Shown piece by piece: positions 4,134 to 51,505 of a stretch of 64,000 bases of DNA (position 1 is the first letter of the stretch; each line of letters begins with the position of its first letter). Both the position numbers and the translations under genes were made by a program. Under the pieces are notes generated by a model. It had not been told where the DNA came from, ran no database searches, and was given only the letters and a program-made list of their open reading frames with translations. Source of the stretch: an uncultured Gammaproteobacteria bacterium (GTDB taxonomy: Bacteria; Patescibacteriota; Microgenomatia; UBA8517); NCBI GenBank assembly GCA_964430475.1, contig CAYSEQ010000001.1, forward strand, positions 92,951-156,950, read 5' to 3'.

Positions 4134-4170
4134 GAAGTAATTTTATAATCTCTGTTCTGAAAATTAAATG

Positions 4171-5157: not shown

Positions 5158-5165
5158 TAAAAACT

Positions 5166-13847: not shown

Positions 13848-14903
13848 TCACAAGCCCTTTCTGGAGTTAATAACTAAAGCTAGGGATATCACAGAACCTA
13901 AAAGAGCTGAACCGCCAGCCGAAACAAATGGTAATGGAATGCCAGTAATTGGGAATAAACCAACATTCATACCAATGTGAATAAGCGTTTGAGCAAAGAA
14001 TGAAAGCAGAACACCGGATACAAATGCACGTGCAATCAAATTTTTTGCTTTTTTCAAAATATCAGTCATCATGTATAAAATTATGAAAAGATCAGATAAA
14101 ACTAAGAAAGATCCCAAAAAACCAAGTTCTTCAGAAATGGAAGCAAAGATGAAGTCTGTATGTCTTTCTGGTAAAAAAAGTAATTGCGTTTGGACACCCT
14201 TTCCTAAACCCCTCCCAAAGATTCTTCCTGAACCAACAGCTATCATCGATTGAATACTATTATAACCTGCGCCTAAGGGATCTGAAAAAGGTTTTAAAAA
14301 AACAAGAATTCTTTCTTTCTGATAAGGTAAAAGTAAAAACCATATGAAAGGTAATAAAATTAAAAAGGCTAACAATCCTCCTAAAAAATGTATTTTTTTA
14401 ATATTTGAAGCCAAAAGTGTACCCAAAAATCCTGCTGCTAAAAGGAAAGCCACTCCAAGCGAGGGTTGTATTAATATAAGAAAGAAAGGTACGGCAAAAA
14501 AAAATAATAGTCTGACAAAATTTTTAAAATTGATTTCATTTTCTGTTGACATTTTCGCAAAGTGAATAATTAGAAAAGCCCTAACAATTTCGGATGGTTG
14601 GAGTGTTATAGGACCAATAGGAATCCAACGAATGGCTCCTCGGGTAATCTCACCTAGTAAAAGTGGAAGTACTAAAAGAAAAAGACTTAAAAAATAAAGA
14701 TGCTTAGAAAAAATGCTAAAAATTTCAAAATCTATTAAGAGAAAAATTAAAAAAATAACAATAGACAAAAAGATATAAAGATAATAGTTAGGAAATAAAA
14801 ATGGGGCAATTGAACGAAGTACAAAAATGCTAATGATGAAAAGCATTACTACGGAAAAAATAAGCAGATAATCTTGCTGGGTAAGTTTAAATATTTTCAA
14901 CAT
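13848..14903 (-). CDS. SEDS-family peptidoglycan glycosyltransferase (RodA/FtsW paralogue)
   Basis: GSGRIFGRGLGKGVQTQ..FLPE.HTDFIFA and PITGIPLPFVSAGGSA are SEDS signatures. Confidence 0.8.
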   Translation of the reverse strand: MLKIFKLTQQDYLLIFSVVMLFIISIFVLRSIAPFLFPNYYLYIFLSIVIFLIFLLIDFEIFSIFSKHLYFLSLFLLVLPLLLGEITRGAIRWIPIGPITLQPSEIVRAFLIIHFAKMSTENEINFKNFVRLLFFFAVPFFLILIQPSLGVAFLLAAGFLGTLLASNIKKIHFLGGLLAFLILLPFIWFLLLPYQKERILVFLKPFSDPLGAGYNSIQSMIAVGSGRIFGRGLGKGVQTQLLFLPERHTDFIFASISEELGFLGSFLVLSDLFIILYMMTDILKKAKNLIARAFVSGVLLSFFAQTLIHIGMNVGLFPITGIPLPFVSAGGSALLGSVISLALVINSRKGL

Positions 14904-20671: not shown

Positions 20672-21373
20672 TTATCCTGTCCTTAACACAGGGTTTTCAA
20701 ATCTCAAATCAATTTCGAGGTCTTTATAATCTTTAATTTTAAAGTCAAAATCTTCTTTATTCAACTGACTATAAATTAAGACGAACTTTCCCAACAAATA
20801 ATCTAAATCACCCTCTAATGGGAATATTACCCTTGGGCCATCTTGGAGTTCAATAAGCAAAAAGTTTTCCTCCTTTGTTGACGAAAGTACCTGATACTGG
20901 CTTGAGAGTAAGGAAGTTATTTTCAAAGCAAAAAGAGTCTCCTCATCCACTTTGCCACCATAAGAAGGCACATTATCGACTATAGTAACAATATTGGGAA
21001 AATCCTGGGTTGACTCCATTAGAACGAACCCTTCGTTAGAAATAAAATAAGTCTTATTGGAAAACCTAGACTTCAATGTAAATTTGGGTCTCCTCTCAGA
21101 AACATTCACATTAAGCCTGTTGGGAAGCTGAAAGTGCAAACTGAAATCTTTGACTAATGTGTCGTTTTTTAAAAGTCTAACTATCTCACTTCTGGCTTTG
21201 CTTAAACTTTTTCCTCTCAAAATTTTTAACTTTTCTTCCAAGAATTGACTGCAGGGTTCATCTTGATTCTTACAGACTATTTCATCAACCAAGATGTAAT
21301 GTGGAAGAACAAAAAGGGAAGCGAGTAAAAATATAATTGCTAAAAATACTGTGAAAAATTTTATCCTATTCAT
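20672..21373 (-). CDS. ftsQ: FtsQ/DivIB-like division protein (N-terminal TM plus POTRA-like domain)
   Basis: A bitopic 233-aa protein at the canonical position between murG and ftsA. Sequence similarity is weak. Confidence 0.45.
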   Translation of the reverse strand: MNRIKFFTVFLAIIFLLASLFVLPHYILVDEIVCKNQDEPCSQFLEEKLKILRGKSLSKARSEIVRLLKNDTLVKDFSLHFQLPNRLNVNVSERRPKFTLKSRFSNKTYFISNEGFVLMESTQDFPNIVTIVDNVPSYGGKVDEETLFALKITSLLSSQYQVLSSTKEENFLLIELQDGPRVIFPLEGDLDYLLGKFVLIYSQLNKEDFDFKIKDYKDLEIDLRFENPVLRTG

Positions 21374-24704: not shown

Positions 24705-25505
24705 TTAATGATTTTTCAGCAAATAATTTCCCCGCTCTAAAATAATCTTAAACCCCTTTTTCCTTAAATTACTCATATGTGTCCTGACTGCGGAGTAAGA
24801 AGCATAACCCGCCCATATAAGATTTTTGATATCATGGATATTCAAAGATTTTTCTTCTCCAAAAAGTTCCAAGATTCGCCTTTCGGTCGGAGTAAGGTGA
24901 ATATCATCTTCAGGCAAAAAAACATATCCCAAGCCTCTTCTATTAACTATAATCTTTGGATTTTCAGGATCCTCTTCAATCTTTCTCCTTATATAATGTA
25001 TCGTGACTCTAACCTTGCTATCAACATTTTCAGAATCGCCCCAAACTTTTCCTAATTCTCTTACTGCTACCATACCTCCTTTTTTTTGTACAAGTAACAT
25101 CAAAACTTGAAACTCTCTTGGGCTTAATTCTACCCTACCTTTTATTGGAAGTTCTATTGATCTATCTTGCTCGCGTATTGAAATCTCCCCAAATTTCCAA
25201 GTTACTTCTGGTTGTGAATTTCTCTCCTTAAGACAATAACCAGTACCCCTGATATTTAAAATCTTTAAGCCTTTTCTTCGTATTTTATGAATAATAAACC
25301 TAACATTTGAATAACTTCCAAATTTTTCTTCAAGATCAGCGTATGGAACAATTCCTTCTGCATTTTCAAGCATTTCTAAAAGTTGTGACTCTCTAGGAGT
25401 TAAATGAGGGGTTCCCTCACTTTCATTTAGGTTCTTACCAAAATTTTCCTTAAATTTTTCTGAAGGAAGATCTCCTTGTTGAGACTCGAATTCAGGAATT
25501 GCCAT
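24705..25505 (-). CDS. Protein made of three tandem OmpR/PhoB-type winged-helix (trans_reg_C) DNA-binding domains with no receiver domain
   Basis: Three repeats each end in the OmpR wing motif: ...LTPRESQLLEML...IRGTGYCL; ...LSPREFQVLMLL...NRRGLGYVFL; ...LTPTERRILELF...LERGNYLL. Confidence 0.6.
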   Translation of the reverse strand: MAIPEFESQQGDLPSEKFKENFGKNLNESEGTPHLTPRESQLLEMLENAEGIVPYADLEEKFGSYSNVRFIIHKIRRKGLKILNIRGTGYCLKERNSQPEVTWKFGEISIREQDRSIELPIKGRVELSPREFQVLMLLVQKKGGMVAVRELGKVWGDSENVDSKVRVTIHYIRRKIEEDPENPKIIVNRRGLGYVFLPEDDIHLTPTERRILELFGEEKSLNIHDIKNLIWAGYASYSAVRTHMSNLRKKGFKIILERGNYLLKNH

Positions 25506-25537: not shown

Positions 25538-26560
25538 TTAAAGTCCCCGATAAATTCTTCTTGCTGTTTCAAAAATAAAAGTCGCCCAATATAAGGGACT
25601 TATGATAAGATCGTGAGCGTGAAGCCAATCTACTCTTTGACCACCAAAACCTTTTTTAAAAACACTCACCCCAAAAAATCTGTGTTTGGGATTGTCGTTG
25701 GGTGCAATCCCCCAGAAATCATAATAATGAATACCTTTACTTTTTAGATATTTAATAATTTGCCATTGTGTAAAATACGAAGCATTGGTGTTTCTTGCAC
25801 TATCAGAAGAAGCACTGTGGTGGTAGAAAGCCTTTTCGCCATAAAAAATTATTAATGCGGAAACTAACTGTTCACCATTTCTTTCGCATATAAAAAGTTT
25901 AGCCTGATCTTCCTTCCCAAACACTTCCAACTGTGCCTTAAAAAGTTCTTCCGAAAATCCCACAAATCTATGCCTTCTGATAGTTTCTTCCTGTAATCTA
26001 TAAAGAACTTTAGCATCGTCTGGATTATCCGAAATCTTAATCGTATAACCTTCAGTAAGACTTTTCTTTATCAAATATCGAGTCGTTTTTCGCATTCCTT
26101 TTAGTATCTCCTCCTCACTTTCTCCAATATCCAAAACAAGGGTATGTTCTCCATGAAGATGCATGGGTGCAGAAATAAAACCAAGCTTTCTTAGTCTATT
26201 TTTTAATTGCTCAGAATCTGCAACATCCGGTCTTATCCTAACAAACCAAACCCTATAATCCTGGGCAATCTTTTTAATCGAATTTACAACAAACTTGTAA
26301 AGATTTTCATTCTCATAATCAATTACAGGTCCACCGGGAATCAAAAAATGTGGTCCTCTCTTAGCTGGCTGATGAATAAGCAGAAATAGTCCGACTAAAC
26401 GGTTTTTTTCGTAAACACCCATTCTTTTTATTTTTAAACCAACCCGTTTGTTTACTTCGCCCCAGTTCCAAGATTGAAGAAAAGTTCCAGGTTTTCTAGG
26501 AAGTAAAAATCCCTCCCATTCTCTCTTATCAGTAATTTCCTTAATTTCGTAATTTGGCAT
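25538..26560 (-). CDS. FemAB/FemX-family aminoacyl-tRNA-dependent peptidoglycan aminoacyltransferase
   Basis: FLQSWNWGEV and YYDFWGIAP are FemABX signatures. The length (340 aa) is FemX-like, without the coiled-coil insert. Confidence 0.7.
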   Translation of the reverse strand: MPNYEIKEITDKREWEGFLLPRKPGTFLQSWNWGEVNKRVGLKIKRMGVYEKNRLVGLFLLIHQPAKRGPHFLIPGGPVIDYENENLYKFVVNSIKKIAQDYRVWFVRIRPDVADSEQLKNRLRKLGFISAPMHLHGEHTLVLDIGESEEEILKGMRKTTRYLIKKSLTEGYTIKISDNPDDAKVLYRLQEETIRRHRFVGFSEELFKAQLEVFGKEDQAKLFICERNGEQLVSALIIFYGEKAFYHHSASSDSARNTNASYFTQWQIIKYLKSKGIHYYDFWGIAPNDNPKHRFFGVSVFKKGFGGQRVDWLHAHDLIISPLYWATFIFETARRIYRGL

Positions 26561-26578
26561 TAATATATAACAATTATT

Positions 26579-27835
26579 TTACAGAGATTTAACACAAATT
26601 TTTAGTAAGCGAGTAACATACAAGGCTTTTTCTTTACTCATTGCTTGATAAGTCGGTAAATTTAAAATTTTTCCGGCTAAGCTCTCGGCACGGGGACAGA
26701 AACCAACTCTATAATTTACAACTGCTAGATCTTTTACTGGAACTATAACGTCTTTGTACCAATCTCCGAGTAAAATCCCTTTCTTTTTCATGCATTCTAT
26801 AATCCTAGGTGCATTTTGGTAAATCACAGGAAATCTCACCCAGACAGAACCCTCATCCCTGCGGGGAAGTTTAAACAAAGAAGTCTTGAGGCTCCTAAAA
26901 TATAAGTTTGCAATTTTTTTCCTCTTCTTATTAAACCTTTCAAGTTTGAAAAATTGATTGTGGGCAAGTTGAGCAAGAGCACCTGGAAATTTCGATGGAA
27001 AAATCTTAGGTCGTTTACCAAACTTCTCTTCTTTCAGGACAGCTTTTGATAGAAATCCTAATTTCTGAAGTATTAAAAGCACAATCTTTCCTAAAGTTAT
27101 ATTACCCAAGCCTAAATTCAAGAAGGGTAAAACTAATAAATTAATTAGTATAGGGTGCAAAAGTTGCTGAAAAACCCAAAGCCTAGGAGGATAATTCAAC
27201 TTATCTCTTTCTTTTTTGAGCTGTTGATAAAGATCTTTATCCTTTGTTAAAATCATTCCACCGAAGACGCTTGATATTACTTTATCCCTACCAAAGCTAA
27301 AAAAAGACACCTTACCAAAAGTACCTAGTAGTCTACCATTAAAACTTCCTCCTAAACACAAAGCGCAATCCTCCACTAGAGGGATTTTCTTTTCTTTTGA
27401 GAATTTTAATATCTCTTTCATATTGGCAGGGATACCAAATGTATGTTGAACAATTATTGTCTTCGTTTTTTCACTTACCTTTTCACGCATGTCTCGGATA
27501 TCCATATTGAAATTTTCATCCACATCTATATATAGAGGCTTTGCACCCAACCACAGTATAGCGTTCGGGACAGCAACACAAGTAAGCGCTTGCAAAGCTA
27601 CTTCATCATTCCCTTTCACGCCAAGTGCTTTTAAGATAAGATATAAAGCACTTCTACCACTATTCACTGCTAAAGCAAGATAACCTCTCCCAAATTTTCT
27701 TGCAAATATTTTTTCGAACTCTTCGGTCTTAGTTGAATCAAACCATAATTGGGGAGAAAATAAAAGCCTTAAAGCCAAAAAAATATCGTCTTTTTCAGTG
27801 TTCGGCGATAAGGCAATCGCAATAGGGTTTTCCAT
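26579..27835 (-). CDS. DegT/DnrJ/EryC1/StrS-family PLP-dependent sugar aminotransferase
   Basis: The N-terminal fold is GRGYLALAVNSGRSALYLILKALG...VEDCALCLGG...SFFSFGRDK, with a putative PLP Lys. Confidence 0.6.
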   Translation of the reverse strand: MENPIAIALSPNTEKDDIFLALRLLFSPQLWFDSTKTEEFEKIFARKFGRGYLALAVNSGRSALYLILKALGVKGNDEVALQALTCVAVPNAILWLGAKPLYIDVDENFNMDIRDMREKVSEKTKTIIVQHTFGIPANMKEILKFSKEKKIPLVEDCALCLGGSFNGRLLGTFGKVSFFSFGRDKVISSVFGGMILTKDKDLYQQLKKERDKLNYPPRLWVFQQLLHPILINLLVLPFLNLGLGNITLGKIVLLILQKLGFLSKAVLKEEKFGKRPKIFPSKFPGALAQLAHNQFFKLERFNKKRKKIANLYFRSLKTSLFKLPRRDEGSVWVRFPVIYQNAPRIIECMKKKGILLGDWYKDVIVPVKDLAVVNYRVGFCPRAESLAGKILNLPTYQAMSKEKALYVTRLLKICVKSL

Positions 27836-29430
27836 TATATCTTTTTTGAAAATTCCAACATTATTTTAGCCGGCAATCTACCCTCAAGAAGTACCACACT
27901 ATCCTTAGAATTTAATATACCTTTCACAATTTGATAAAGCTTATCTTCGTTGACATATATAAGCTTATCTTTCTTGGTCATACCTTTTTTTAAGTCATTC
28001 AAAAAATCTCTGTTCGTCAAATACACTATTTCGGCTTTACCGCTTAGCAACTTTCCAATCTTTTGATGAATAGCACCTGATCTTTGACCTAATTCTATAA
28101 TTCCACTGGTTATGACAATTCTTCTTTTATTTTTGAAACTTTTTAAATAATTTATAGCAGCCTCAAATGAGGATGGTGTAGAGTTATATGTATCATCAAT
28201 GATGATGTTGCCTCCCAACTCATAAACATTCATTGTCCCTTTTGGTAAAACCAGATTCTTAACACCTTCTTCTATCTTTTTCCAAGAAACGCCAAAAAGT
28301 TTAGCGACTAAAATTCCAGCAGTAAGATTTTCGAGAAGGTGTTCTCCAGTCAAATTAGTGGAAAAAACATGCTTTGCGCTTTTATATTTTACTTCGAAAA
28401 CAATACTTTTTCTTTTAAAAGATAAAACTCTTGCAACAATGTCCGCGTTTTCATCCCAACTTTCTTGGGTACTATGTTTAACAAAATAACTCAAAACCTT
28501 TAGTTTTGACTTGAGTTTCTTTGCTCGTAAAAAAAGCTCTCGGCAATGTTTATTGTTAAAATTAAAAATCGCAAGACCTTCTTGAGGTAAACTTTCAATT
28601 AACTCAAATTTCGCTTTTTTAATGTTTTCTAAGCTTCCAAACAAGGCAAGATGCTGTTCTTCAATCCCTGTCAATATGCCAATAGATGGATGTACAATCT
28701 CGGTAAGTTTTTTTATTTCTCCCCTCTTATAAGCCCCCATTTCAACGACAAAAAATTCAGTTCCAGACTTAACATTCAGAATCGCCTTTCTAGCTACACC
28801 AAACTCTGTATTTTCGCTTCCTTCTGTCTTTGCTACCTTGAATTTTTGAGATAAAAGATGCGCTACAAATTCCTTGGTAGTTGTCTTCCCATAGCTTCCC
28901 GTAATTCCAATAACAATCGGTTTTACACTATCTAAGACTTCACGAGCTTTCTTGATTTCCTCTCTTTTAATCTTATTAACAATGGGAGTCGTCCATAAAA
29001 TACCAAGGAAGGGTGTAACTAACAACAAAACCTCGCCTACCAAAAGATTTCTGAAAAAAAGGGTAGCCAGGATCCCTAAAACCGAAGCCAAAAAAATCTT
29101 CTGAGCTCTCTGTGTAAATACCGGCTTTTTTAGGTTCTTTGTAAAAAGTTTCCAAAATGTCAGGAAATCAAGATATAGAATTCCAATCAAAAACAAAAAC
29201 CCTACAGGATAAAGCTTTAAAAAAAACGCTGTTAGGATCTTGAAAAAGATGAATAAAATACCCAATTTCTTTACACCTTCGTAGGATTTAAAAAAAACCG
29301 AGAATCTGTCCCAACGATACTCCTTTGTTTGTAACCAATATATCCAGTTTAATATCTGTGAAAAAGCCTGGATTGCCCAAAAAACAAAAATCGTAAAAAA
29401 ATTTAATGAGAGAAAATCTGTTTCTGCCAT
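27835..29430 (-). CDS. murF: MurF-like Mur ligase (D-Ala-D-Ala adding enzyme) in which an N-terminal ~150-aa four-TM domain replaces the usual N-terminal domain
   Basis: The P-loop IGITGSYGKTTTKE, the MurF C-terminal DDTYNSTPSSFEAAINYL, and 4 hydrophobic helices in residues 1-150 with no internal Met before the ligase core. Confidence 0.65.
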   Translation of the reverse strand: MAETDFLSLNFFTIFVFWAIQAFSQILNWIYWLQTKEYRWDRFSVFFKSYEGVKKLGILFIFFKILTAFFLKLYPVGFLFLIGILYLDFLTFWKLFTKNLKKPVFTQRAQKIFLASVLGILATLFFRNLLVGEVLLLVTPFLGILWTTPIVNKIKREEIKKAREVLDSVKPIVIGITGSYGKTTTKEFVAHLLSQKFKVAKTEGSENTEFGVARKAILNVKSGTEFFVVEMGAYKRGEIKKLTEIVHPSIGILTGIEEQHLALFGSLENIKKAKFELIESLPQEGLAIFNFNNKHCRELFLRAKKLKSKLKVLSYFVKHSTQESWDENADIVARVLSFKRKSIVFEVKYKSAKHVFSTNLTGEHLLENLTAGILVAKLFGVSWKKIEEGVKNLVLPKGTMNVYELGGNIIIDDTYNSTPSSFEAAINYLKSFKNKRRIVITSGIIELGQRSGAIHQKIGKLLSGKAEIVYLTNRDFLNDLKKGMTKKDKLIYVNEDKLYQIVKGILNSKDSVVLLEGRLPAKIMLEFSKKI

Positions 29431-30122
29431 GAGTTTATTTCTAAAGCTACCTTTTTAGGGTCTTCGTAAGGAAGTCTATGGCCCTGGTTTTCAAAAACCA
29501 CAAGTTTACTTCCCAAAATGCGGGATTTTAGAAAGAATGCGTCTTTAATTGGAGTCATCTTATCTTTTTCTCCCCAAAGAATAAGTACAGGAATTTTAAT
29601 TTTACTTACAGAATCTTTCAAATCCTCATTAACAACCTTCTTAAATATCTCGCGCATAATCCCTTGAGTCTTCTCGTAATCGTGTTCCCTGGCTAATTTG
29701 TAAAGTAGCCTTCTAAAGTTCTTAGCAATTTTAGGATAAATCAAAAATACCTTCCCTAACTTCGCAACTAAAATGAAAACTAATCTTTTTAAAAAAATTG
29801 TTCTTGAAATTCCTCTTGTTTCACAAAGAATTATTCCATAAAGATCTCGTTTATGATTTAAGGCAAGTTTTAATGCAATCGCTCCGCCAAAAGAATGTCC
29901 AAAGACAAAAAACTTTACTTTTGAAAATCTTTTCTCTGCTTTTTTTAAAACATAATCAGAATATTCCTTTAACCCCCAAACCTTCTTTGGTGCGGGCCTC
30001 CCAAAACCTGGAAGCTTGATAAGAAAAACACGCCAACCAAGACCTAAAAGTTCTTTTTTGAGTGGGATCAGGCTTTCTGTCTTTGCACCCCAACCGTGAA
30101 TAAGAACTATATTTTTAAGCAT
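29403..30122 (-). CDS. Alpha/beta-hydrolase fold protein
   Basis: IVLIHGWG..., the nucleophile elbow GHSFGG and a C-terminal His. It overlaps murF by 28 nt. Confidence 0.65.
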   Translation of the reverse strand: MLKNIVLIHGWGAKTESLIPLKKELLGLGWRVFLIKLPGFGRPAPKKVWGLKEYSDYVLKKAEKRFSKVKFFVFGHSFGGAIALKLALNHKRDLYGIILCETRGISRTIFLKRLVFILVAKLGKVFLIYPKIAKNFRRLLYKLAREHDYEKTQGIMREIFKKVVNEDLKDSVSKIKIPVLILWGEKDKMTPIKDAFFLKSRILGSKLVVFENQGHRLPYEDPKKVALEINSWQKQIFSH

Positions 30123-30197: not shown

Positions 30198-31607
30198 TTA
30201 GAAAGTTAACGATCTAACTGCTTCTTTAAATTGATAACCCCGATCCTTATAATCTTTAAACATATCAAATGAGGCAGCTGCAGGTGAAAGAAGTACCACC
30301 CCACCTTTAGGTGTAATCTCAAAAGACTTCTGGATCAACTCTTGCATTTTAGGATACCCAAGTTCTAGTAAATTTCCTCTAAAATTTGCCCTTTTAATAG
30401 AACGCTTTATCTTTTTCGCTATCTGCCCAATCAAGATTACATTTGCTATATTTTTGGCTTTTGAAATTTCTTTTCCAAGAAGGTCATAATTCAACCCCTT
30501 ATCAGATCCACCAAGAATCAATGTGAGAGGTTCTTCAAATGAACGCAGTGCGGCTATTGTAGTTTGAGGATTAGTCGAAAACGAATCATTGTAAAAAGAT
30601 ACTCCTTTGACTTCCGCAACTAATTCTAGTCTGTGCTCAAGTCCTTTAAAAGAAAAAAGGACCTTTCTTATCGTCAGTGGATGGACACCAGCAAGATATG
30701 CCGCACAAGCTGCTGCACAAATGTTTTCCCAGTTATGCTTCCCCCTCAACAATAAGTCTTGGGTATCTCCTATTTCCATAGACCTTCCAGAAAAATTAAT
30801 AAAAATCTTTCCATTTTTTACATATGCTCCTTTTACTTTCTTTTTAGTACTAAAATAAAAGACTTTAGCGTTAGTAAGACGCGAGAAAGACTTTGAAACT
30901 TTATAGTCAAATGCTAAAACGCAAAAATCCTCCTTCGCCTGATGCCTAACAATCTGAGACTTTGCTTTTATGTATTCCTCCTTGTCTTTGTGCCAGTCAA
31001 GATGGTCCTCGGTAATATTTAAAACAACACTGATATGTGGACTCTTAGTCAAATCTATTAGCTGAAAGGAGGAGAGCTCTAAAACAACCCAATCGCTGGG
31101 CTTAAGTTTGGGTAAAAGTTCCAAAACAGGCAGACCTATATTGCCAGCAAGATAAACGCTCCTCCCATCTTTTTTCAAAATTTCATAGATCAAGGTGCTT
31201 GTAGTACCTTTTCCTTTAGTGCCAGTGACACCTATGATCCTTGCTTGACAATCATCAAAAAAAACTTTAATTGCTGAAGTAACAAAAACACCTTTACTTT
31301 CTGCCTCAACTATCTCAGGAAGATATCTGTAAACTGCCGGTGTACGAAAAATACAATCAAAACTACCTAATCCATGTTTTAAATAGTTCCTACCAAGAAC
31401 AAGTCTTGCCTTCCGGATATCAAAACCCGAAAAATCTAGTTCTTTCTTTGTCTTTCTATCAAATATTGTCAATTCAGCGCCATTTTTAAGTAAATACTTT
31501 GCTGAATCTAAGCCATTAATTCCCCAACCCAAGATTGCGATTTTTTTACTCTTCCAATTATTCATCTTTAGTAGTAAAGGTATGATAAAACTAAAAAATT
31601 TAATCAA
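30198..31607 (-). CDS. murD: UDP-N-acetylmuramoylalanine--D-glutamate ligase MurD
   Basis: KIAILGWGINGLDSAKYLLKNGAELTIFD (MurD Rossmann), GVTGTKGKGTT and LAGNIGLPVLELL. Confidence 0.8.
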   Translation of the reverse strand: MIKFFSFIIPLLLKMNNWKSKKIAILGWGINGLDSAKYLLKNGAELTIFDRKTKKELDFSGFDIRKARLVLGRNYLKHGLGSFDCIFRTPAVYRYLPEIVEAESKGVFVTSAIKVFFDDCQARIIGVTGTKGKGTTSTLIYEILKKDGRSVYLAGNIGLPVLELLPKLKPSDWVVLELSSFQLIDLTKSPHISVVLNITEDHLDWHKDKEEYIKAKSQIVRHQAKEDFCVLAFDYKVSKSFSRLTNAKVFYFSTKKKVKGAYVKNGKIFINFSGRSMEIGDTQDLLLRGKHNWENICAAACAAYLAGVHPLTIRKVLFSFKGLEHRLELVAEVKGVSFYNDSFSTNPQTTIAALRSFEEPLTLILGGSDKGLNYDLLGKEISKAKNIANVILIGQIAKKIKRSIKRANFRGNLLELGYPKMQELIQKSFEITPKGGVVLLSPAAASFDMFKDYKDRGYQFKEAVRSLTF

Positions 31608-32661
31608 ATCCTATAAACTGAACCTCAGGCTCAAGCTTGATACCAAACTTATTATAAATATCACTAGAAATTACCTCAGAAAGTTTCTTTATGTCTTTGG
31701 CGGTGGCTTTCTTCCTGTAATTTGTAATCACTAGTGCGTTTTTACTAGATACTCTTGCACCTCCTATACCTTTTCCCCTCCAACCCGCTTTATCAATTAA
31801 CCAACCTGCAAATAGCTTATACCTATTCTCTCCATCCTCGTAAAAAGGCATGTCAGGGTATTTTTTAATTAAAGCTTTGAAAATCTTTTTCCCTACAAAA
31901 GGATTTTTGAAAAAAGACCCAGCATTCCCAACAAATTTGGGATTTTCAAGCTTCTTCCTTCTTAAATAAAGAACAGCTTTTCTTACCTCTTTTAATGTCG
32001 GATTTATAACATTTTTTTTCATAAAATAGTCAGTAAGGGACTTATAGGTAAGTGTCGGGGTAGCATTTTTCTTTAACATAAGAAATACTTCGGTAATTAA
32101 ATAGCGTCCAATGTTTCGGGGAATCTTAAATATACTAGATCTATAAGAAAATTTGCAGTCGTTTTTTGAGAAAGTTACAAATTTTTGTTCCTTAAAATCA
32201 AAAGCGATAAGTTTCACAAATGTATCCTTTAATTCTTGGCCGTAGGCACCTATATTTTGGATAGGTGAAGCACCAACTGTTCCGGGAATCCCTGAAAGGC
32301 ATTCTATGCCTTGTAAATTTTTATCAACGCAGATTTTTACCAATCGATCCCATTTTAAACCGGCTTGAGCTTTAACTAAAACATGCCCTTTCCTTTTTGT
32401 AAAACTCACTTTATTACCTCTAAATTTTATTACCAAACCCTTAAAACCAGAATCATTTATAAGAATATTACTTCCCTCACCAATGACAAAAATCGGCAAT
32501 TTTTTTTCTTTCGCAAATAAGACTGCTTGCAAAACATCATTTTTTGTCTTTAAGACGCAAAAATATTGAGCTTTTCCTCCAACCTGAAATGTAGTCAAAT
32601 CTCTAAGATTAACATTCTTATAAAATATCAAGTTTGTATTATCTACTGAAACATTAAGCAT
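31600..32661 (-). CDS. murB: UDP-N-acetylenolpyruvoylglucosamine reductase MurB
   Basis: LTTFQVGG.A, an FAD-binding N-terminal domain and IGEGSNIL. Confidence 0.8.
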   Translation of the reverse strand: MLNVSVDNTNLIFYKNVNLRDLTTFQVGGKAQYFCVLKTKNDVLQAVLFAKEKKLPIFVIGEGSNILINDSGFKGLVIKFRGNKVSFTKRKGHVLVKAQAGLKWDRLVKICVDKNLQGIECLSGIPGTVGASPIQNIGAYGQELKDTFVKLIAFDFKEQKFVTFSKNDCKFSYRSSIFKIPRNIGRYLITEVFLMLKKNATPTLTYKSLTDYFMKKNVINPTLKEVRKAVLYLRRKKLENPKFVGNAGSFFKNPFVGKKIFKALIKKYPDMPFYEDGENRYKLFAGWLIDKAGWRGKGIGGARVSSKNALVITNYRKKATAKDIKKLSEVISSDIYNKFGIKLEPEVQFIGFD

Positions 32662-32666
32662 TTTTC

Positions 32667-34238
32667 TTATCTTTTTATTTCTTTAACGCCACCTCTAAGT
32701 GCTACCTTCACTGCATCAAAGTCCGACCATTCGTATTCTTTTCCATTATAAGCCATGCTCATTTCATGTCCCTTTCCACAGATTATAATAACATCTTCTT
32801 TTTTGGCTAATTTTTGAATAGCAAACGAAATTGCCTCTCCCCTTTCAGGAATTCTTATAAACACATGGTTTGGATTTTTTCCTAACTTATTTAAAACAGT
32901 AAGATTTCTTTTGTTTCCTAATTTGATTTCTTTGGAGTTATTTTTTTTAGCGCCCTTCACCATCTCCCTAATAATATCGTTGACATTTTCACTTCTGGGG
33001 TCTTCTGCGGTAAATATTGAGACATCTGCAATACGCGTTGATATCTCACCCATCAAAGATCTTTTCCCAACATCTCGCTCACCGGCACAACCTAAAACAG
33101 CAATCAACCTTCCCTTATTCCTTTTTTCTATCATCCTTTTTAAATATCCAAGCACATTCTCTAAGGAATTCGGAGTGTGAGCAAAATCTATAAAAATATC
33201 AAGTTTAGCTTTCTTTATCTTTTCTAAACGTCCTTTAGGGGTCTGAAATTGAGCGATATATTTTTTAAGTTTCTGGATATCGGGTGTATAAAATTTCACT
33301 GCCGCAATAGCCGCCAAAATATTATAAACATTATATTCCCCTAAAAGCTTAGTTCTAACACTAAAGGACCTCACACCGTCAATAAGCTCAAAAGTGGTGT
33401 ATGAATCAGATTCGTTTATGTTTATGGCTAAAATATCGGATCCTTTGTCCTTCAATCCATAAGTAATGATTTCTACGGATGGATCTATTTCTTTCTTAAA
33501 CGCTGTATATATATTTGGATCATCTTTATTAAGAACTGCTTTTTTAGTATGTTTAAAAAGCTTTATTTTAGCCTGAAGATACTTTTGGAAAGTTTTATGG
33601 TAATCAAGATGCTCATGAGTGACATTTGTTAAGACTGCACAATCAAAATCAATGCCAAATACCCTTTCTTGATCTAGTGCATGAGAGGTAACCTCCAACA
33701 CAGCAAACTCACACCTTTGTTTTACCATCTTGTACAAAAGGCTATGAAGTAATGTCGGATCTGGACTCGTTACATGAAGTCCAGTATCAAATTCTTTTTC
33801 TTTAATTTTTGCTCCGATTGTTGAAATCAGTCCCGTTTTATGACCCAAAGAATTTAACAATTCACTAATTAAAGTTGAAACCGTTGTCTTACCATCAGTT
33901 CCAGTCACACCTATAATTTTTAAGTTCCTGGAAGGGTAGCCATAAAAAGCAGCAGAAAGTAGACCCAAAAACTTTCTAGAATCCTCGACTTTAATATAAA
34001 CCACTTCATTTGGAATTTTTCTTGAGGATTTTGGATTTTCACTTACGATAACCTTGGCTCCTTTTTGAATCGCATCAAAAATGAAGGTGTTACCGTCAAC
34101 ATGTAAGCCTTTAATGGCAACAAAGAGACTTCCCTCTCCAATTTCCCTTGAATCTTGAGATATTTTTTTAACATCATAATCCTTAAAATTATATATCTTA
34201 CAATTTGAAATTCCCTGAAGAAGACGGGTCAGTTTCAT
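32667..34238 (-). CDS. murE: MurE (UDP-MurNAc-L-Ala-D-Glu : diamino acid ligase)
   Basis: The DSREIGEGSLFVAIKG N-terminal signature and IIGVTGTDGKTT. The specificity motif reads EDPR rather than the canonical DNPR. Confidence 0.85.
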   Translation of the reverse strand: MKLTRLLQGISNCKIYNFKDYDVKKISQDSREIGEGSLFVAIKGLHVDGNTFIFDAIQKGAKVIVSENPKSSRKIPNEVVYIKVEDSRKFLGLLSAAFYGYPSRNLKIIGVTGTDGKTTVSTLISELLNSLGHKTGLISTIGAKIKEKEFDTGLHVTSPDPTLLHSLLYKMVKQRCEFAVLEVTSHALDQERVFGIDFDCAVLTNVTHEHLDYHKTFQKYLQAKIKLFKHTKKAVLNKDDPNIYTAFKKEIDPSVEIITYGLKDKGSDILAININESDSYTTFELIDGVRSFSVRTKLLGEYNVYNILAAIAAVKFYTPDIQKLKKYIAQFQTPKGRLEKIKKAKLDIFIDFAHTPNSLENVLGYLKRMIEKRNKGRLIAVLGCAGERDVGKRSLMGEISTRIADVSIFTAEDPRSENVNDIIREMVKGAKKNNSKEIKLGNKRNLTVLNKLGKNPNHVFIRIPERGEAISFAIQKLAKKEDVIIICGKGHEMSMAYNGKEYEWSDFDAVKVALRGGVKEIKR

Positions 34239-34262
34239 AATTCAACAAAAATCGAAAACGCC

Positions 34263-35546
34263 CTATATTTCCTCAATTTTAGCACCTAATTTTTTTAAGT
34301 TTTGGGAAAAATGAGGATGTCCTCTATACAGTGCATCAGCATTTAATATTACCGTTTCTCCCTCGGAAATCATAGCTGAAATAACCATTGCCACTACTGC
34401 ACGAATAATGTAAGGAGCTTCCAGTATCGCACCCCTTAATTTATTTCCGGCAATAACGATAACTCTATGAGGATCCGCCATTATAATATTCGCTCCCAGT
34501 TTTCCCAACTCCGATGTCCAAAAAAGTCCTGCTTCGTACATCCAGTTATGAAAAAGTACTTGTCCTTCTTTTGCAGCAAGTGCAAGTGGAATAAAAAGAG
34601 GTAAAATGTCCACAGGAAGTGCAGGCCAAGGTTGAGCTTTTACAACTAAGGTTTTTCTCCCTTCCTCAGAAGAGATAACAATCTCATCCTGGTCAACATA
34701 AGCACTGCCATCCTTATACTTAATCCTAACGCCAAACTTCTCAAAAATTCTTGCAATTGGCTTAAACTCTCTTTGCAAGGCATCATGTACTACCACTTTC
34801 CCTTTGGTGGCGGAAGCCATTGCCAAAAAAGTGGCGATTTCATAATGGTCGCTCAATATCCTGTGCTCGGTTGGTTTTAACAATTTTCCTCCTTCAATTT
34901 CCAGAATATTTGAACCTACCCCATCTATCTTTGCTCCACAAGCGTTCAAAAAGTTACAGAGATCCTGCACTTGAAGTTCGCAAGCACCTCCAATAATCTT
35001 TGTTTTACCTGGAAGTCCAACAGCTAGCATGATCGCATTCTCTGTTGCCGTGGGGCTGACTTCAGTAAGCCAAATTTCTCTTGCTTTAGCCTCTCTGGCA
35101 TCCATAGAAACACTTGAAGTAGTCTCTCTTATCTTCACACCCAAATCCCTAAACGCTTGATAATGTGGATCTAATGTTCTATACCCAAGCGTGCAGCCAC
35201 CTGGCAAATCCTTAAAAACTACTTTCTTGAACCTATAAAGCATTGGTCCCCAGAGAAGGGATGTCCCTCTCATATTTCCTAAATCCTCTTTATCCAAGTT
35301 TTTAAAAGACAAATTTTTGTTATCGATTGTCAATGTCTTATTCTCTTTATCCCACAACACTTTACTCCCCATTTTTTGGAGTATATTCAGAAGTCTTGTA
35401 ACATCCGTTATATCTGGGACATTTTTGAATTTTACGGGTTGATCAAACAAAATACTGGCAGGAATCAAAGCAACTGCTGAGTTTTTACTTCCAGAAGGAT
35501 ACACTTCACCTTCAAGTCTTTGACAACCAATTACTCTTATATTCAT
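34263..35546 (-). CDS. murA: UDP-N-acetylglucosamine 1-carboxyvinyltransferase MurA
   Basis: YPSGSKNSAV and LPGGCTLGYR (catalytic Cys) in an EPSP-synthase fold. Confidence 0.85.
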   Translation of the reverse strand: MNIRVIGCQRLEGEVYPSGSKNSAVALIPASILFDQPVKFKNVPDITDVTRLLNILQKMGSKVLWDKENKTLTIDNKNLSFKNLDKEDLGNMRGTSLLWGPMLYRFKKVVFKDLPGGCTLGYRTLDPHYQAFRDLGVKIRETTSSVSMDAREAKAREIWLTEVSPTATENAIMLAVGLPGKTKIIGGACELQVQDLCNFLNACGAKIDGVGSNILEIEGGKLLKPTEHRILSDHYEIATFLAMASATKGKVVVHDALQREFKPIARIFEKFGVRIKYKDGSAYVDQDEIVISSEEGRKTLVVKAQPWPALPVDILPLFIPLALAAKEGQVLFHNWMYEAGLFWTSELGKLGANIIMADPHRVIVIAGNKLRGAILEAPYIIRAVVAMVISAMISEGETVILNADALYRGHPHFSQNLKKLGAKIEEI

Positions 35547-39213: not shown

Positions 39214-39972
39214 CTAGTTACTTTCGGAGACACCAATGATGATCAACTTGTCTAGAGTTTTTGAGATTGGATCTTTCGACCAACTTTTACTTTCTTCATC
39301 CCAACGATAAATTTCTGCTCCACTTTCTAGAACCTCATTTTCAACCTGAAATCTACCTGAAGCAAAAATTCCATAAGGACCCGAAACTATATTCGCAGGA
39401 TTAAAAGAAGGTAGACCAACAGTCTGCATGGTTACAAAATAAGTTCCCTTAGGAGAAGATTTACTAAGCTTAATCTTTAAGACTCCGTCAATGCTAGTCA
39501 AGGTATCCACACCTTTCTGCATATGAAATTCAGTCTCAAATTTTGATAAAAGTTTCCCCTCAGCATTCCTAAACTTCAGTGTCAACTTCCCTACTTCTAC
39601 GCCCTCATCGTACCTAAATTTCCCCGAAGACTCGCTTCCTAAAAGAAGATCCGTTTCAAAAAAACTTTTGTCTTTAATATCCACCGTGCCTGGAACACCC
39701 TGAGTAACTTTTTCCTTTGTCTCATAAAGAAGCTCGTAGTCAAGCGAAGATCCCAATTTTGACATATTTTCTATCCTTAACTTTAGATAATGTCCATCAC
39801 TCGTGGGTGTGAGGGAAACGAATGGCCTATCCTTTAGAGGGACATCAAGAAGTGCACTCTCTTCTTCTTGATTTTGTACTTCAGGAGTGTTTTTTTTATT
39901 AACGAAAAATAATACCACTACGATTGATATTATACCTAGCAGTAAAAGAACGAGCTCTAAATATTTTCTCAT
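39214..39972 (-). CDS. Hypothetical secreted or membrane-anchored protein
   Basis: An N-terminal TM/signal MRKYLELVLLLLGIISIVVVLFFV, then a beta-rich domain. Confidence 0.4.
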   Translation of the reverse strand: MRKYLELVLLLLGIISIVVVLFFVNKKNTPEVQNQEEESALLDVPLKDRPFVSLTPTSDGHYLKLRIENMSKLGSSLDYELLYETKEKVTQGVPGTVDIKDKSFFETDLLLGSESSGKFRYDEGVEVGKLTLKFRNAEGKLLSKFETEFHMQKGVDTLTSIDGVLKIKLSKSSPKGTYFVTMQTVGLPSFNPANIVSGPYGIFASGRFQVENEVLESGAEIYRWDEESKSWSKDPISKTLDKLIIIGVSESN

Positions 39973-42653: not shown

Positions 42654-43217
42654 TTATTCTACCACACTCCTTTCTTGAAGAAGCCTTTTTCCAACTCTTA
42701 TGGAAGTAATTTCCCTTTCTAATATTTCGCTTAAAATTTCGTCTGGTTTTTCCATACTCTTACCTTCGGGCCAAAATCCAAGGATTACAAGGACCTTGTA
42801 AATAAAGTCTTTTCTTAAACTTTTTAACCTGCTTGTGCTAGTTAATGTCTTAAGGGTATCCAATAACAAAAGGTAGAGCTTTTGATTTTTTTCTTCAAAA
42901 TTAGTAAGTTTTAAAATAGTCTCTAAAACAAAATAGCCTACAGCCAGTCTTTTCAAATCTGATTTTAATTCCGCAAAAGACCTGATTATTTGAACCTCTG
43001 TCATTAAACTAATGCCCTTTGATTTATTAGCGGAAAATTTTACCTGACTGAAAACCTCTATATGTCCTCTTTTTCGACTTGTTGGTTTGCGTACACCCTT
43101 AGCTAAAACCTCTAATTTTCCAAAATTCTTGGTGTAAAGAAAAAGGATTCTATCAGCCTCACCAAAATTTTTCCTTTTAAGAACTACTGCTTCTGAGGAA
43201 AATTTACGAGGTAGCAT
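42654..43217 (-). CDS. recO: DNA repair protein RecO (short form)
   Basis: The N-terminal OB fold SEAVVLKRKNFGEADRILFLYTKNFGKLEVLAKGVRK matches the RecO N-terminus. Confidence 0.5.
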   Translation of the reverse strand: MLPRKFSSEAVVLKRKNFGEADRILFLYTKNFGKLEVLAKGVRKPTSRKRGHIEVFSQVKFSANKSKGISLMTEVQIIRSFAELKSDLKRLAVGYFVLETILKLTNFEEKNQKLYLLLLDTLKTLTSTSRLKSLRKDFIYKVLVILGFWPEGKSMEKPDEILSEILEREITSIRVGKRLLQERSVVE

Positions 43218-43231
43218 AAAAAATACTAAAC

Positions 43232-45232
43232 CTAAATTTTAACTTTAATTTCCTTGTCGGTTTTAAGATAAAACTCTTGCATTTTTTTACCTAAGGTTAA
43301 GCTATATAAGGGAGAATCCCTACCGGGTTGTTTTTGGATATATATCTTGTAAACCTGATCAAACTTTTGAGGTAGTTCATATTTAACTTTTACCTCTACT
43401 ATACCCTGGGGTCTCAATTCAAAAAAACCTGAAAAGACCGTCTTGCCAAACTCTTCGTAAGGATCCTTTTTCTCTTGCAGTCCTTCAAGGCTTAATAACT
43501 TACTGCCTTTTGGTACATAGATCCTTACCCAATTTGGAAGAACGCTATTAAGCCAGCCATCATGCCTCATTGGATTTTTGTAAATAATACTCAAAACTTT
43601 CACTACACTACCATCTTCTCTAATTTCAACTTCTTGGTTTACTTCCTGGGTAACATATAGGTTTGATTTTCGACCTCCAAGATTAGCATCGTTTATCATA
43701 AGAAAATCCCCATCGTAGTCATTGATCCTTCCAGCTATTCCGAAACTCTCCAGAGCATGTTGAACCTTTTCATCAAACATAAAAATAAGTATGTGCTTTT
43801 CAAAAATAGATCGAAGAAGCGCGTTGAAAAGGGCAGGTAATTTACTTGTTGGTAAACCCAATGTATCTTTCAAAATAGTATTCATCATCGGACCTATGAT
43901 TTTCTTGCGATTGTCGAAGTTCGGTGGTGCGTACACAATCTTACCAGGCTCATTTTCACTCCAAACGATAGGTCCTTCCAGATCCGCAAAACTTTCTAAC
44001 TCATACACCACCTGCGGACAATTACACAACTCAACAATATTATTTGAATAACCTCCGTATCCCGGAACTTGTATTTCGCCCAAAACATCAAGAATATTTA
44101 CGAGTGTAAAAGTATCCACTGCGATAACTCCATCAATGTTTTTAATTCCAGCCGATGCTGCTTCTCTCGTAAAAAGTTGCATGGACTCAAAAAAGTCAGG
44201 CGACCAATTCATATCTCTTAACCTATAATTTTTTGATATCAAATAGGGACCTTTTATGTATTTTCTCAATACCTCAGGAGCTTCAACTTTTGGTTTATAA
44301 AGATTGTCAAGATTATATATATCATTCGAAGATATAGGCTCAATTATCCCATTTTTTACCTTCGCTATTGAGTAGGCTGTGATAAAACCTCCAGTTGGGC
44401 GAAGTTCCTTGTCATTTTGAAAAATTAGTAGATATCTTCTTTCGCTGTCTAAACCCAAAAGGTAAGGGATAACTTCAAGTAAAGGCTTTCCTCTAATGAC
44501 AAAATTTGATCCTAACTCCACCAGCTCTTTCCCCTTCTCAATCCTATCCCTTATCGGCAGACCAAACATTTTCTCAGGATATCTGGCTGGATCTATATAA
44601 TCGACTTCTTGTTTTAGAAGAGAAACCTTAGTCGAGATTACACCAGACTTTGAGATCAGATCAGGAAGCGATTCTATAATGAACCCAATCGTGTCATAAG
44701 TGCTTTTTCTATCTGGCACCTCTCCCTGAGCATTTTTAAAACCGATAATGTAGGCGTAAGGCGAAACGGTTTCAACTAAAAGGTCTGTTGTCTCAACGCC
44801 ATAAATCCCGGCATTTATTATATGAGAGGCATCGGAAACATAAGTACCCACAAGCGGAAGAAACTTTAACCATCCTACATATTTGAATACCTTTTGGGTT
44901 TCAATAAGGGTATTCTTTACATCTTTTAATTCCCCTTTTATTTTTACGAGATCTTTTTCATCTAAAGCCTGATTTAGTTTTTGTAAGGAACTTTCCAAAG
45001 ACTTGGCATTAAGATAAATCTTGTAAAAACCTATCCCAAACATAAATGCCGTCAGGACAATAAAAAAAAGGATAATCAGTCCTATTTTTCTAAGATTTAA
45101 ACTCCGAAAAGAAACCCAAAAGCTCCTTTTTCTTAATTTCTCGGACTTTCTCTCTTCCATATTAAAGGTGGTTTCCAAATCAGTTGAATTCTCAGAAACC
45201 TCTACACTTTTTATTTTCCTAAACTCAACCAT
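43232..45232 (-). CDS. DUF4012-like large extracytoplasmic protein with an N-terminal TM anchor
   Basis: RRYLLIFQNDKELRPTGGFITAYS and SPDFF segments match what I remember of DUF4012. It is immediately adjacent to a phosphoglycosyl transferase, as is typical. Confidence 0.5.
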   Translation of the reverse strand: MVEFRKIKSVEVSENSTDLETTFNMEERKSEKLRKRSFWVSFRSLNLRKIGLIILFFIVLTAFMFGIGFYKIYLNAKSLESSLQKLNQALDEKDLVKIKGELKDVKNTLIETQKVFKYVGWLKFLPLVGTYVSDASHIINAGIYGVETTDLLVETVSPYAYIIGFKNAQGEVPDRKSTYDTIGFIIESLPDLISKSGVISTKVSLLKQEVDYIDPARYPEKMFGLPIRDRIEKGKELVELGSNFVIRGKPLLEVIPYLLGLDSERRYLLIFQNDKELRPTGGFITAYSIAKVKNGIIEPISSNDIYNLDNLYKPKVEAPEVLRKYIKGPYLISKNYRLRDMNWSPDFFESMQLFTREAASAGIKNIDGVIAVDTFTLVNILDVLGEIQVPGYGGYSNNIVELCNCPQVVYELESFADLEGPIVWSENEPGKIVYAPPNFDNRKKIIGPMMNTILKDTLGLPTSKLPALFNALLRSIFEKHILIFMFDEKVQHALESFGIAGRINDYDGDFLMINDANLGGRKSNLYVTQEVNQEVEIREDGSVVKVLSIIYKNPMRHDGWLNSVLPNWVRIYVPKGSKLLSLEGLQEKKDPYEEFGKTVFSGFFELRPQGIVEVKVKYELPQKFDQVYKIYIQKQPGRDSPLYSLTLGKKMQEFYLKTDKEIKVKI

Positions 45233-45898
45233 CTATACAGCTCCTTTCCCAGAAATCATTGCCCAAGGGGTTTTTAAGATAATAAGAATATCAAAAAGGA
45301 GACTTTTTTTCCTTGCATAATAGGCATCCATCTGAATTCTTTTGTCAAAATTCACCTCACTTCTTCCAGATACCTGCCAATATCCCGTTATTCCTGGTTT
45401 TACTTTCAAAACTTCCTTTACCAATTCTTTGGTATGAGGATATCTTTTTTGCTGTTCTCTCAATTCATCAGGATAATAAGCCCTAGGACCAACAATACTC
45501 ATCTCTCCTTTTAAAACATTTATAAATTGAGGCATCTCATCTATTGAAAACCTCCGAATTATTCTACCTACCTTTGTGACCCTTGGATCTTTAAAAAGCT
45601 TATAACTTGAAGCTTTGTACTCTTTATAGAGCTCTTTAAACCTAGGATCTTTCTTCATAAGATAATGGGCGTTGACAATCATCGACCTGAATTTATATAG
45701 GCGAAATAGCTTTCCATTCTTGCCCACACGTGGCGGAATATCTGCAAAAACCGGACCTGGCGAGGTCAACTTTATTAGTAAAGCAGTTGTCAAAAGAATA
45801 GGAGAAAAAATGATAATAAGAAAAATTGATCCAAATATATCTATCGTTCTTTTAGTTATATTATAAAAAGAACTTAGGTCCTCGCTCGAAAAAATCAT
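45233..45898 (-). CDS. Initiating polyprenyl-phosphate sugar phosphotransferase (bacterial sugar transferase, WbaP/WcaJ C-terminal-domain type)
   Basis: KRTIDIFGS...TSPGPVFADIPPRVGKNGKLFRLYKFRSM...DEMPQFINVLKGEMSIVGPRA. Confidence 0.85.
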   Translation of the reverse strand: MIFSSEDLSSFYNITKRTIDIFGSIFLIIIFSPILLTTALLIKLTSPGPVFADIPPRVGKNGKLFRLYKFRSMIVNAHYLMKKDPRFKELYKEYKASSYKLFKDPRVTKVGRIIRRFSIDEMPQFINVLKGEMSIVGPRAYYPDELREQQKRYPHTKELVKEVLKVKPGITGYWQVSGRSEVNFDKRIQMDAYYARKKSLLFDILIILKTPWAMISGKGAV

Positions 45899-45961
45899 AA
45901 TCGGGCAGAATATTATAATATGTCAAGCCTTAGTAAATCATACCAAAAAATTAAAAATCTT

Positions 45962-47047: not shown

Positions 47048-47071
47048 TTAACAATTAAATCTATATAAAAC

Positions 47072-48172: not shown

Positions 48173-48219
48173 TTTTTAAAGATTTGATTAGAAAATACTT
48201 TCATACACCTAACTGACGC

Positions 48220-51503: not shown

Positions 51504-51505
51504 TT

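Follow-up and report, generated by a model that had tools for sequence, protein, structure and literature searches.

A MurF-type ligase of Patescibacteria with a predicted membrane domain in place of the UDP-binding N-terminal domain

Introduction

We describe here a gene, located on the minus strand at coordinates 27835 to 29430 of a 64,000-nucleotide stretch of DNA (the window; contig CAYSEQ010000001.1 of assembly GCA_964430475.1, positions 92,951 to 156,950), whose 531-residue product carries the central and C-terminal domains of a MurF-type ligase behind a predicted polytopic membrane domain. The canonical N-terminal domain, which binds the uridine diphosphate (UDP) moiety of the substrate, is gone, and we refer to the protein as TM-MurF, for transmembrane (TM) MurF. 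It occupies the murF slot of a complete division and cell wall (dcw) gene cluster, between MurD and MraY. With somewhat better than even confidence we propose that TM-MurF is the D-Ala-D-Ala-adding enzyme of its lineage, acting in the membrane beside MraY and using conserved loops of the membrane domain in place of the UDP-binding domain.

MurF is a soluble enzyme in textbook accounts, and MraY is treated as the first membrane enzyme of peptidoglycan synthesis. The boundary between cytoplasmic, UDP-linked steps and membrane-bound, lipid-linked steps is treated as universal, and channelling of intermediates through a "Mur complex" has long been proposed. Full-text literature searches returned no description of a membrane-embedded MurF, and the architecture is apparently new to the literature.

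Results

The TM-MurF open reading frame (ORF) is complete, with an ATG start and a stop codon at 27835-27837, and residues ~170-531 are, by sequence, those of a MurF-type Mur ligase. Pfam places the central, ATP-binding domain (Mur_ligase_M, PF08245, E 5e-37) at residues 176-376 (28303 to 28905, minus strand) and the C-terminal domain (Mur_ligase_C, PF02875) at residues 407-514 (27889 to 28212, minus strand). The former is introduced by the P-loop GITGSYGKTTT at residues 175-185 (28876-28908) and the latter contains a MurF-type DDTYNSTP (28174-28197) and GIIELG, with DDTYNSTPSSFEAAINYL at residues 412-429. We take the DDxYNANP/ELG-type motif of the C-terminal domain to be MurF-specific and D-Ala-D-Ala-binding. 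The top NCBIfam match is murF (TIGR01143) with 248.5 bits, compared with 77-84 bits for murC, murD and murE, and aligns residues 162-516 with model positions 65-404; nothing is aligned before position 65.

Structural comparisons lead to the same enzyme. The seven best matches in a PDB sequence search are all MurF, the closest being that of T. maritima (3ZL8), and this alignment begins at 3ZL8 residue 71, in the linker helix ahead of the P-loop. The ten best Foldseek matches are likewise all MurF (E 1e-27, TMt ~0.72, ~385 columns). Residues G175, T177, G178, S179, G181, K182, E230, H260 and K274 are invariant in 98 TM-MurF sequences, as are D413 and E446 in the C-terminal domain, and DDTYNSTP pairs with DDTYNASP of the T. 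maritima enzyme. The family as a whole keeps the P-loop, E230, H260, K274, DDxYNxxP and ELG.

In Mur ligases the N-terminal domain binds the UDP moiety and makes contact with the pyrophosphate, the central domain is the ATP-binding one, and the C-terminal domain is where the incoming amino acid binds (PMC10117817, PMC6085368). TM-MurF has two of these three domains, central and C-terminal, intact and MurF-like, and has exchanged the N-terminal one. A preliminary description of this DNA had proposed such a replacement and had named profile searches and structure prediction as ways of looking for a leftover UDP-binding domain. Pfam gives no credible match in residues 1-170, and no match to PF01225, although the MurE of the same window has one; neither the Pfam and NCBIfam searches, nor a PDB sequence search, nor the predicted secondary structure revealed a remnant of the canonical domain in this region, and AlphaFold2 models residues 1-169 as all helix with zero beta strand. 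Pfam is blank over residues 1-170, and the alignments to the murF model and to 3ZL8 start no earlier than position 65 and residue 71, respectively; we conclude from this that the canonical domain is absent and not just diverged.

What stands in its place is an all-helical membrane domain of 169 residues (28924 to 29430, minus strand). AlphaFold2, run from a 98-sequence alignment, models the protein with a mean pLDDT of 96 and a pTM of 0.93, and places N-terminal helices at residues 2-35, 40-48, 50-56, 58-73, 77-96, 107-126 and 129-169; the domain modelled by itself yields the same helices with a pLDDT of 92. Helix 1 (residues 2-35; 29326 to 29427, minus strand) is a putative first TM span, more polar than the others, with an acidic N-tail and an aromatic belt formed by W29, Y31 and W32. 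A predicted TM hairpin follows, consisting of helices 58-73 and 77-96 (29143 to 29259, minus strand) and containing the conserved K64, and then a TM helix at residues 107-126 (29053 to 29112, minus strand), placed by AlphaFold2 and by hydropathy. The last element is a continuous 41-residue helix, 129-169 (28924 to 29046, minus strand), which provides both the last predicted TM span and a cytoplasmic linker to the first strand of the ligase. In the model this helix runs unbroken into that strand, which bears out the earlier observation that the MurF core directly follows the membrane region, and its counterpart in the alignment with T. maritima MurF is the linker helix.

The number of membrane spans is four or five. 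The preliminary description counted four hydrophobic helices, and four strongly hydrophobic segments are present, at about residues 56-74, 77-96, 107-126 and 129-148; the count leaves out the more polar helix 2-35, which probably also spans the membrane. Averaged over 101 homologs, the hydropathy profile has a single hydrophobic helix at the N-terminus and two ~40-residue blocks resembling helical hairpins. An insertion-energy estimate is marginal (+1.2 to +2.0 kcal/mol) and gives weak support. Lysine and arginine residues are concentrated in segments 31-57 (six), 95-111 (five) and 149-170 (seven), and are scarce in the acidic N-tail at residues 1-7 (none) and in the turns at 72-78 and 125-131 (one each). 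This charge distribution suggests that both long loops lie on the cytoplasmic side together with the ligase; the C-terminus would be inside, and we favour five spans with the N-terminus outside.

The membrane domain has no evident relatives among known families. No Pfam family recurs in it across 38 members, and a Foldseek search against the PDB returned no fold relative, the best E value being 5.3. Derivation from the neighbouring FtsW or MraY, or from the MurE N-terminal domain, was considered and rejected, each giving an hhalign probability below 1%. Residues 1-169, which are modelled with confidence, appear to define an undescribed membrane-domain family.

Such an arrangement could in principle be produced by a frameshift or an assembly error joining a small membrane ORF to a truncated murF, and we assign this explanation a negligible probability. 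It is ruled out by the continuous ORF and by the family-wide architecture, which recurs in at least 120 clusters from independent assemblies, and the helix at 129-169 bridges both parts. As had been proposed, there is one gene and no separate upstream ORF; residues 1-150 lack internal methionines, M1 being the sole methionine before residue 231. We also examined 30 related loci (~20 kb fetched per genome, designated here by L numbers), one of which carries a fragmented copy of the gene (L023, a low-quality 4.3-kb contig); this is an artefact of the opposite kind.

The most conserved parts of the membrane domain lie in its two long loops. Motif 1, QTKEYRWDRF (residues 34-43; 29302 to 29331, minus strand), and motif 2, PVFTQR (residues 103-108; 29107 to 29124, minus strand), occupy one predicted cytoplasm-facing loop each, and take the forms QxKEYRxDR(F) and (R)xPxxTxR in the family; a few distant members have KEYHxPRF in place of motif 1. 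Across 202 sequences, distant ones included, Q34, K36, E37, Y38, R39, D41, R42, P103, T106 and A162 are 96-100% conserved, with P103 at 100%, T106 at 99% and A162, which lies in the linker helix, at 98%. These ten residues match the catalytic residues in conservation, and the membrane helices themselves vary.

This degree of conservation in the loop motifs, at least 96% over the 202 sequences, indicates that the membrane domain does more than anchor the enzyme. The N-terminal region is hydrophobic and helical, and Mur enzymes tethered to membrane proteins are known from the MurD-FtsW and MraY-MurG chimeras (PMC10214165); both observations would suit a region that only localises the enzyme while the ligase core binds substrate without an N-terminal domain. 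We consider this very improbable: one helix would suffice for the purpose, not the multi-helix fold that is confidently predicted here, and the ten loop and linker residues are held at 96% or more in divergent sequences while the TM segments vary. The preliminary description thus stands as to the lost domain and the polytopic one found in its place, and the word anchor undersells a domain with two such motifs.

TM-MurF is widespread. A full-length search recovered at least 120 clusters, formed at 90% identity, which are 35-55% identical to the protein over ~95% of its length, N-terminal region included, and the named clusters are from Woesebacteria, Blackburnbacteria, Parcubacteria and "Patescibacteria group". 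A profile of the N-terminal domain alone, searched against 1.84 billion representative proteins, matched 690 clusters at E ≤ 1e-3 and 158 at E ≤ 1e-10, answering the call in the preliminary description for a profile search in related lineages. Among the best 150 of the 690 matches the domain is always N-terminal, in proteins of ~510-580 residues or shorter, and neither a standalone copy nor another fusion partner was seen; the short matches that extend beyond the TM region enter GITGSxGK and are therefore truncated gene calls. The pattern W[WLI]QxKEYRxD identified 27 loci in species-representative genomes, from Woese-, Blackburn-, Pace- and Andersenbacteria, Paceibacterota and unclassified Patescibacteria. 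Every source that could be assigned is patescibacterial, and the independent assemblies that carry the architecture include closed or near-closed genomes. Public labels for the family are "UDP-N-acetylmuramoyl-tripeptide--D-alanyl-D-alanine ligase", "Mur ligase central domain-containing protein" and "hypothetical protein".

Several of the records have unexpected taxonomic titles. Metagenome-assembled genomes titled 'uncultured Gammaproteobacteria bacterium' carry Patescibacteria-type dcw clusters at loci L004, L007, L010, L014, L016, L020, L023, L024, L026 and L028, and a 2.7-kb contig binned as 'Parachlamydiales' (L017) carries hydrolase, TM-MurF and DegT-like genes in the order described below. 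The labels of these third-party genomes are probably generic or mis-binned.

The dcw cluster of the window is transcribed entirely from the minus strand. Its first half comprises MraZ, RsmH, FtsI, MurA, MurE, MurB, MurD, an alpha/beta-hydrolase and TM-MurF, and these are followed by a DegT-like protein, a FemAB-like protein, a winged helix-turn-helix protein, MraY, FtsW, MurG, an unassigned ORF, FtsA and FtsZ. MurE and MurD are the only other Mur-ligase paralogs in the 64 kb, and neither a second MurF nor a MurC was found there, the remainder consisting of polysaccharide synthesis and housekeeping genes. A further intact MurF-type ORF was found neither in the window nor in the 30 related loci, whose dcw clusters have canonical MurC, MurD and MurE with normal N-terminal domains and the TM form as sole MurF-type enzyme. 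Seven genes with duplicated "MurD" or "MurE" labels were tested as possible hidden second MurFs, and all are MurC (367-415 bits, cutoff 335).

Other features of the Mur genes at these loci were noted. In most related dcw clusters (L004, L005, L018 and others) murC lies between murE and murB, and the corresponding part of the window (30198-35546) has none. In Woesebacteria CP065002.1 (L001:4623-6878) the 751-residue MurE carries a fused nucleotidyltransferase domain (NTP_transferase) at its C-terminus. Long MurE-like stop-to-stop ORFs are found at L007:1437-3695 and L019:2281-4611 (753 and 777 residues), and L019 also has an 849-residue MurD-like ORF. These MurE and MurD combinations are absent from the chimera types listed in PMC10214165.

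TM-MurF is the second member of a four-gene block at 25538-30122 (minus strand), and 25 of the 30 related loci have the four genes in this order: hydrolase, TM-MurF, DegT-like, FemAB-like. The exceptions are loci at contig ends, the fragmented copy in L023, L029, which is without the hydrolase, and L030, in which the TM part was missed by single-sequence phmmer. Upstream, the alpha/beta-hydrolase (29403 to 30122, minus strand) has GHSFGG and conserved Asp and His residues, and the 28 nt at its 3' end overlap the start of TM-MurF. Downstream, a DegT/DnrJ-like pyridoxal phosphate enzyme (26579 to 27835, minus strand) has a conserved lysine in SFGRDK, and its start overlaps the TM-MurF stop; the overlapping gene ends suggest translational coupling. 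The fourth, co-conserved member is a FemAB/FemX-like peptidyltransferase (25538 to 26560, minus strand), whose best match, a weak one, is the FemX type acting on UDP-MurNAc-pentapeptide. The three partners all appear catalytically intact, and neither the hydrolase nor the DegT-like member is known to take part in peptidoglycan synthesis. MraY, FtsW and MurG follow the block in ~20 of the loci.

For the DegT-like protein, PseC/LegC sugar aminotransferase models match the N-terminal half only, far below their cutoffs, and a moderately hydrophobic insert at residues ~225-260, present in all 29 homologs, is possibly a membrane-association element. Between the FemX-like gene and mraY, a 266-residue protein (24705-25505, minus strand) has an OmpR-type winged-helix domain (Trans_reg_C) and HTH_11 and is without a receiver domain; among the 30 related loci no counterpart was detected here, and the gene appears to have been inserted into the dcw cluster in this lineage specifically. 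The ORF in the ftsQ position between murG and ftsA (20672-21373, minus strand) is without a Pfam match, and a homolog occupies that position in most related loci. Two further ORFs without Pfam matches lie at 39214-39972 (minus strand) and 8644-9711 (plus strand), the three such ORFs encoding 233-355 residues. A second SEDS (RodA/FtsW) gene is present at 13848-14903. Envelope polysaccharide genes flank the division cluster at 975-6185 and 42654-54450 (minus strand), and encode GT1, GT2 and GT4 glycosyltransferases, a Wzx-like flippase, a Wzy_C/O-antigen-ligase-like protein, PMT_2 and Bac_transf proteins, a 666-residue DUF4012 protein and a sugar nucleotidyltransferase.

Discussion

In the mechanism that we favour, a conserved polytopic membrane domain takes the place of the UDP-binding alpha/beta N-terminal domain, and the rigid helix that is continuous with the last TM span would hold the ligase domains just below the bilayer. 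The QxKEYRxDR and PxxT(x)R loops would stand in for the lost binding site and receive the acceptor's carrier end, either nucleotide or diphosphate. The last 'cytoplasmic' precursor step would then take place on the membrane surface next to MraY, with UDP-MurNAc-tripeptide as acceptor and the pentapeptide product passed directly to MraY. What the sequences show is the architecture, its conservation and spread across the family, the gene order and the lack of a further MurF-type gene in the examined clusters; the topology, what the loops do, which substrate is used and whether the enzyme is coupled to MraY are inferred.

Several observations weigh against this proposal. The TIGR01143 score of TM-MurF falls below the curated NCBI cutoff of 288.6 bits; only model positions 65-404 align, and the shortfall is accounted for by the missing N-terminal domain. 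MraY does not follow the block in the fetched DNA of five loci: in three (L024, L027, L030) there is no other dcw gene at all, and in two the block stands beside only FtsI upstream (L026) or an FtsQ-like gene downstream (L003), so that the four genes may be a functional unit of their own. Neither the window nor the related loci showed a Ddl, and the check for a second MurF covers only the ~20 kb per genome. Lastly, a tether would not require five structured membrane helices, and their number hints that a ligand or partner resides in the membrane.

The persistence of the four-gene order in loci with few or no dcw genes nearby, the overlapping genes in the window, the sub-cutoff murF score and the intact look of the partners are also what one would expect if TM-MurF were a MurF-derived paralog, working with the hydrolase, DegT-like and FemX-like proteins in a separate membrane-associated module that tailors the stem peptide or another envelope polymer, or adds some other residue to it. 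We find this improbable. The dcw clusters examined have MurC, MurD and MurE and no other MurF-type gene, FtsI is present and is a D,D-transpeptidase requiring a D-Ala-D-Ala donor, and TM-MurF keeps DDxYNxxP and has MurF as its nearest relatives in both sequence and fold.

If TM-MurF is the D-Ala-D-Ala-adding enzyme, its acceptor would more likely be UDP-MurNAc-tripeptide than a lipid-linked tripeptide. We favour the UDP-linked acceptor because MurC, MurD and MurE still build on UDP and MraY looks ordinary, and because the tyrosine, acidic and basic residues of the motifs would suit a uridine-diphosphate. MurC, MurD and MurE keep their UDP-binding N-terminal domains, and the tripeptide is therefore presumably built on UDP.

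The alternative is a reordered pathway, in which MraY first moves phospho-MurNAc-tripeptide to undecaprenyl phosphate and TM-MurF, its membrane domain and basic loops binding the polyprenyl-diphosphate head group instead of UDP, would add D-Ala-D-Ala to the product. The lost domain is precisely the UDP-binding one, and under the proposed topology the invariant Lys and Arg residues would sit at the membrane-cytoplasm interface, where the head group of undecaprenyl diphosphate (C55-PP) would lie; a structured domain of four or five helices also goes beyond the requirement for a tether. MurT provides a precedent as a Mur-ligase homolog acting on bactoprenol-bound intermediates (PMC3266927, PMC6085368), and the conserved hydrophobic insert of the DegT-like neighbour and the ability of Fem enzymes to use lipid II point the same way. 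However, this pathway requires MraY to accept a tripeptide substrate efficiently, and MraY scores as an ordinary Glycos_transf_4 protein alongside canonical MurC, MurD and MurE. The tyrosine and acidic motif residues are equally suited to binding uridine and ribose, and the FemX-like neighbour best matches, if weakly, the type with a soluble substrate. We regard the reordered pathway, the main rival of the UDP-linked reading, as unlikely. A broader version, that stem-peptide completion takes place on the lipid carrier in many Patescibacteria with TM-MurF in a complex with the hydrolase, DegT-like and FemX-like proteins, seems doubtful.

Comparison with known systems helps to define what is new. 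Canonical MurF (TIGR01143; 3ZL8, 4QF5 of A. baumannii, 4CVM of P. aeruginosa and 1GG4 of E. coli) is encoded in the same dcw position, between murE/murD and mraY. It is soluble and has a UDP-binding alpha/beta N-terminal domain of ~70-90 residues, whereas TM-MurF is predicted to be integral to the membrane, has a 169-residue helical membrane domain instead, and scores below the family cutoff.

MurT, of the MurT/GatD lipid II amidotransferase, resembles TM-MurF in being derived from a Mur ligase and in making no use of the canonical UDP-binding N-terminal domain; it works at the membrane on bactoprenol-bound precursors and acts on lipid I and lipid II and not on UDP-linked precursors (PMC3266927), and lipid II is without the uridine that the Mur N-terminal domain binds (PMC6085368). 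In contrast to TM-MurF, which is predicted to be membrane-embedded and is of the dipeptide-adding type, MurT is a soluble or peripheral protein that depends on the GatD glutaminase and carries out an amidation. TM-MurF scores 20 bits against the MurT model NF052464 (cutoff 800), no GatD-type domain was found among its annotated neighbours, and it has the His (H260) that MurT is reported to lack (PMC6085368).

The natural Mur chimeras (MurE-MurF, MurC-Ddl, MurD-FtsW and MraY-MurG; PMC10214165) likewise join a Mur enzyme to another module, in some cases a membrane protein, and a similar rationale of channelling or co-localisation applies. They are end-to-end fusions of two complete known proteins, whereas TM-MurF is a domain replacement. 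The survey that catalogued them considered only proteins of more than 600 residues from named species and never uses the word "transmembrane" (PMC10214165); with these filters the TM-MurF family would have been excluded.

The signature W-x-Q-x-K-E-Y-R-x-D-R can be used for finding and annotating the family, and the conserved four-gene block flags three further proteins without an assigned cell-wall role. In hundreds of clusters from a major bacterial radiation, the last Mur ligase is a predicted integral membrane protein. If the acceptor is lipid-linked, these organisms would have a reordered peptidoglycan pathway and a new polyprenyl-diphosphate-binding fold. At a minimum, TM-MurF would be hard-wired evidence that substrate is channelled from the Mur ligases to MraY, and at most it would mean that the order of the pathway differs in these organisms.

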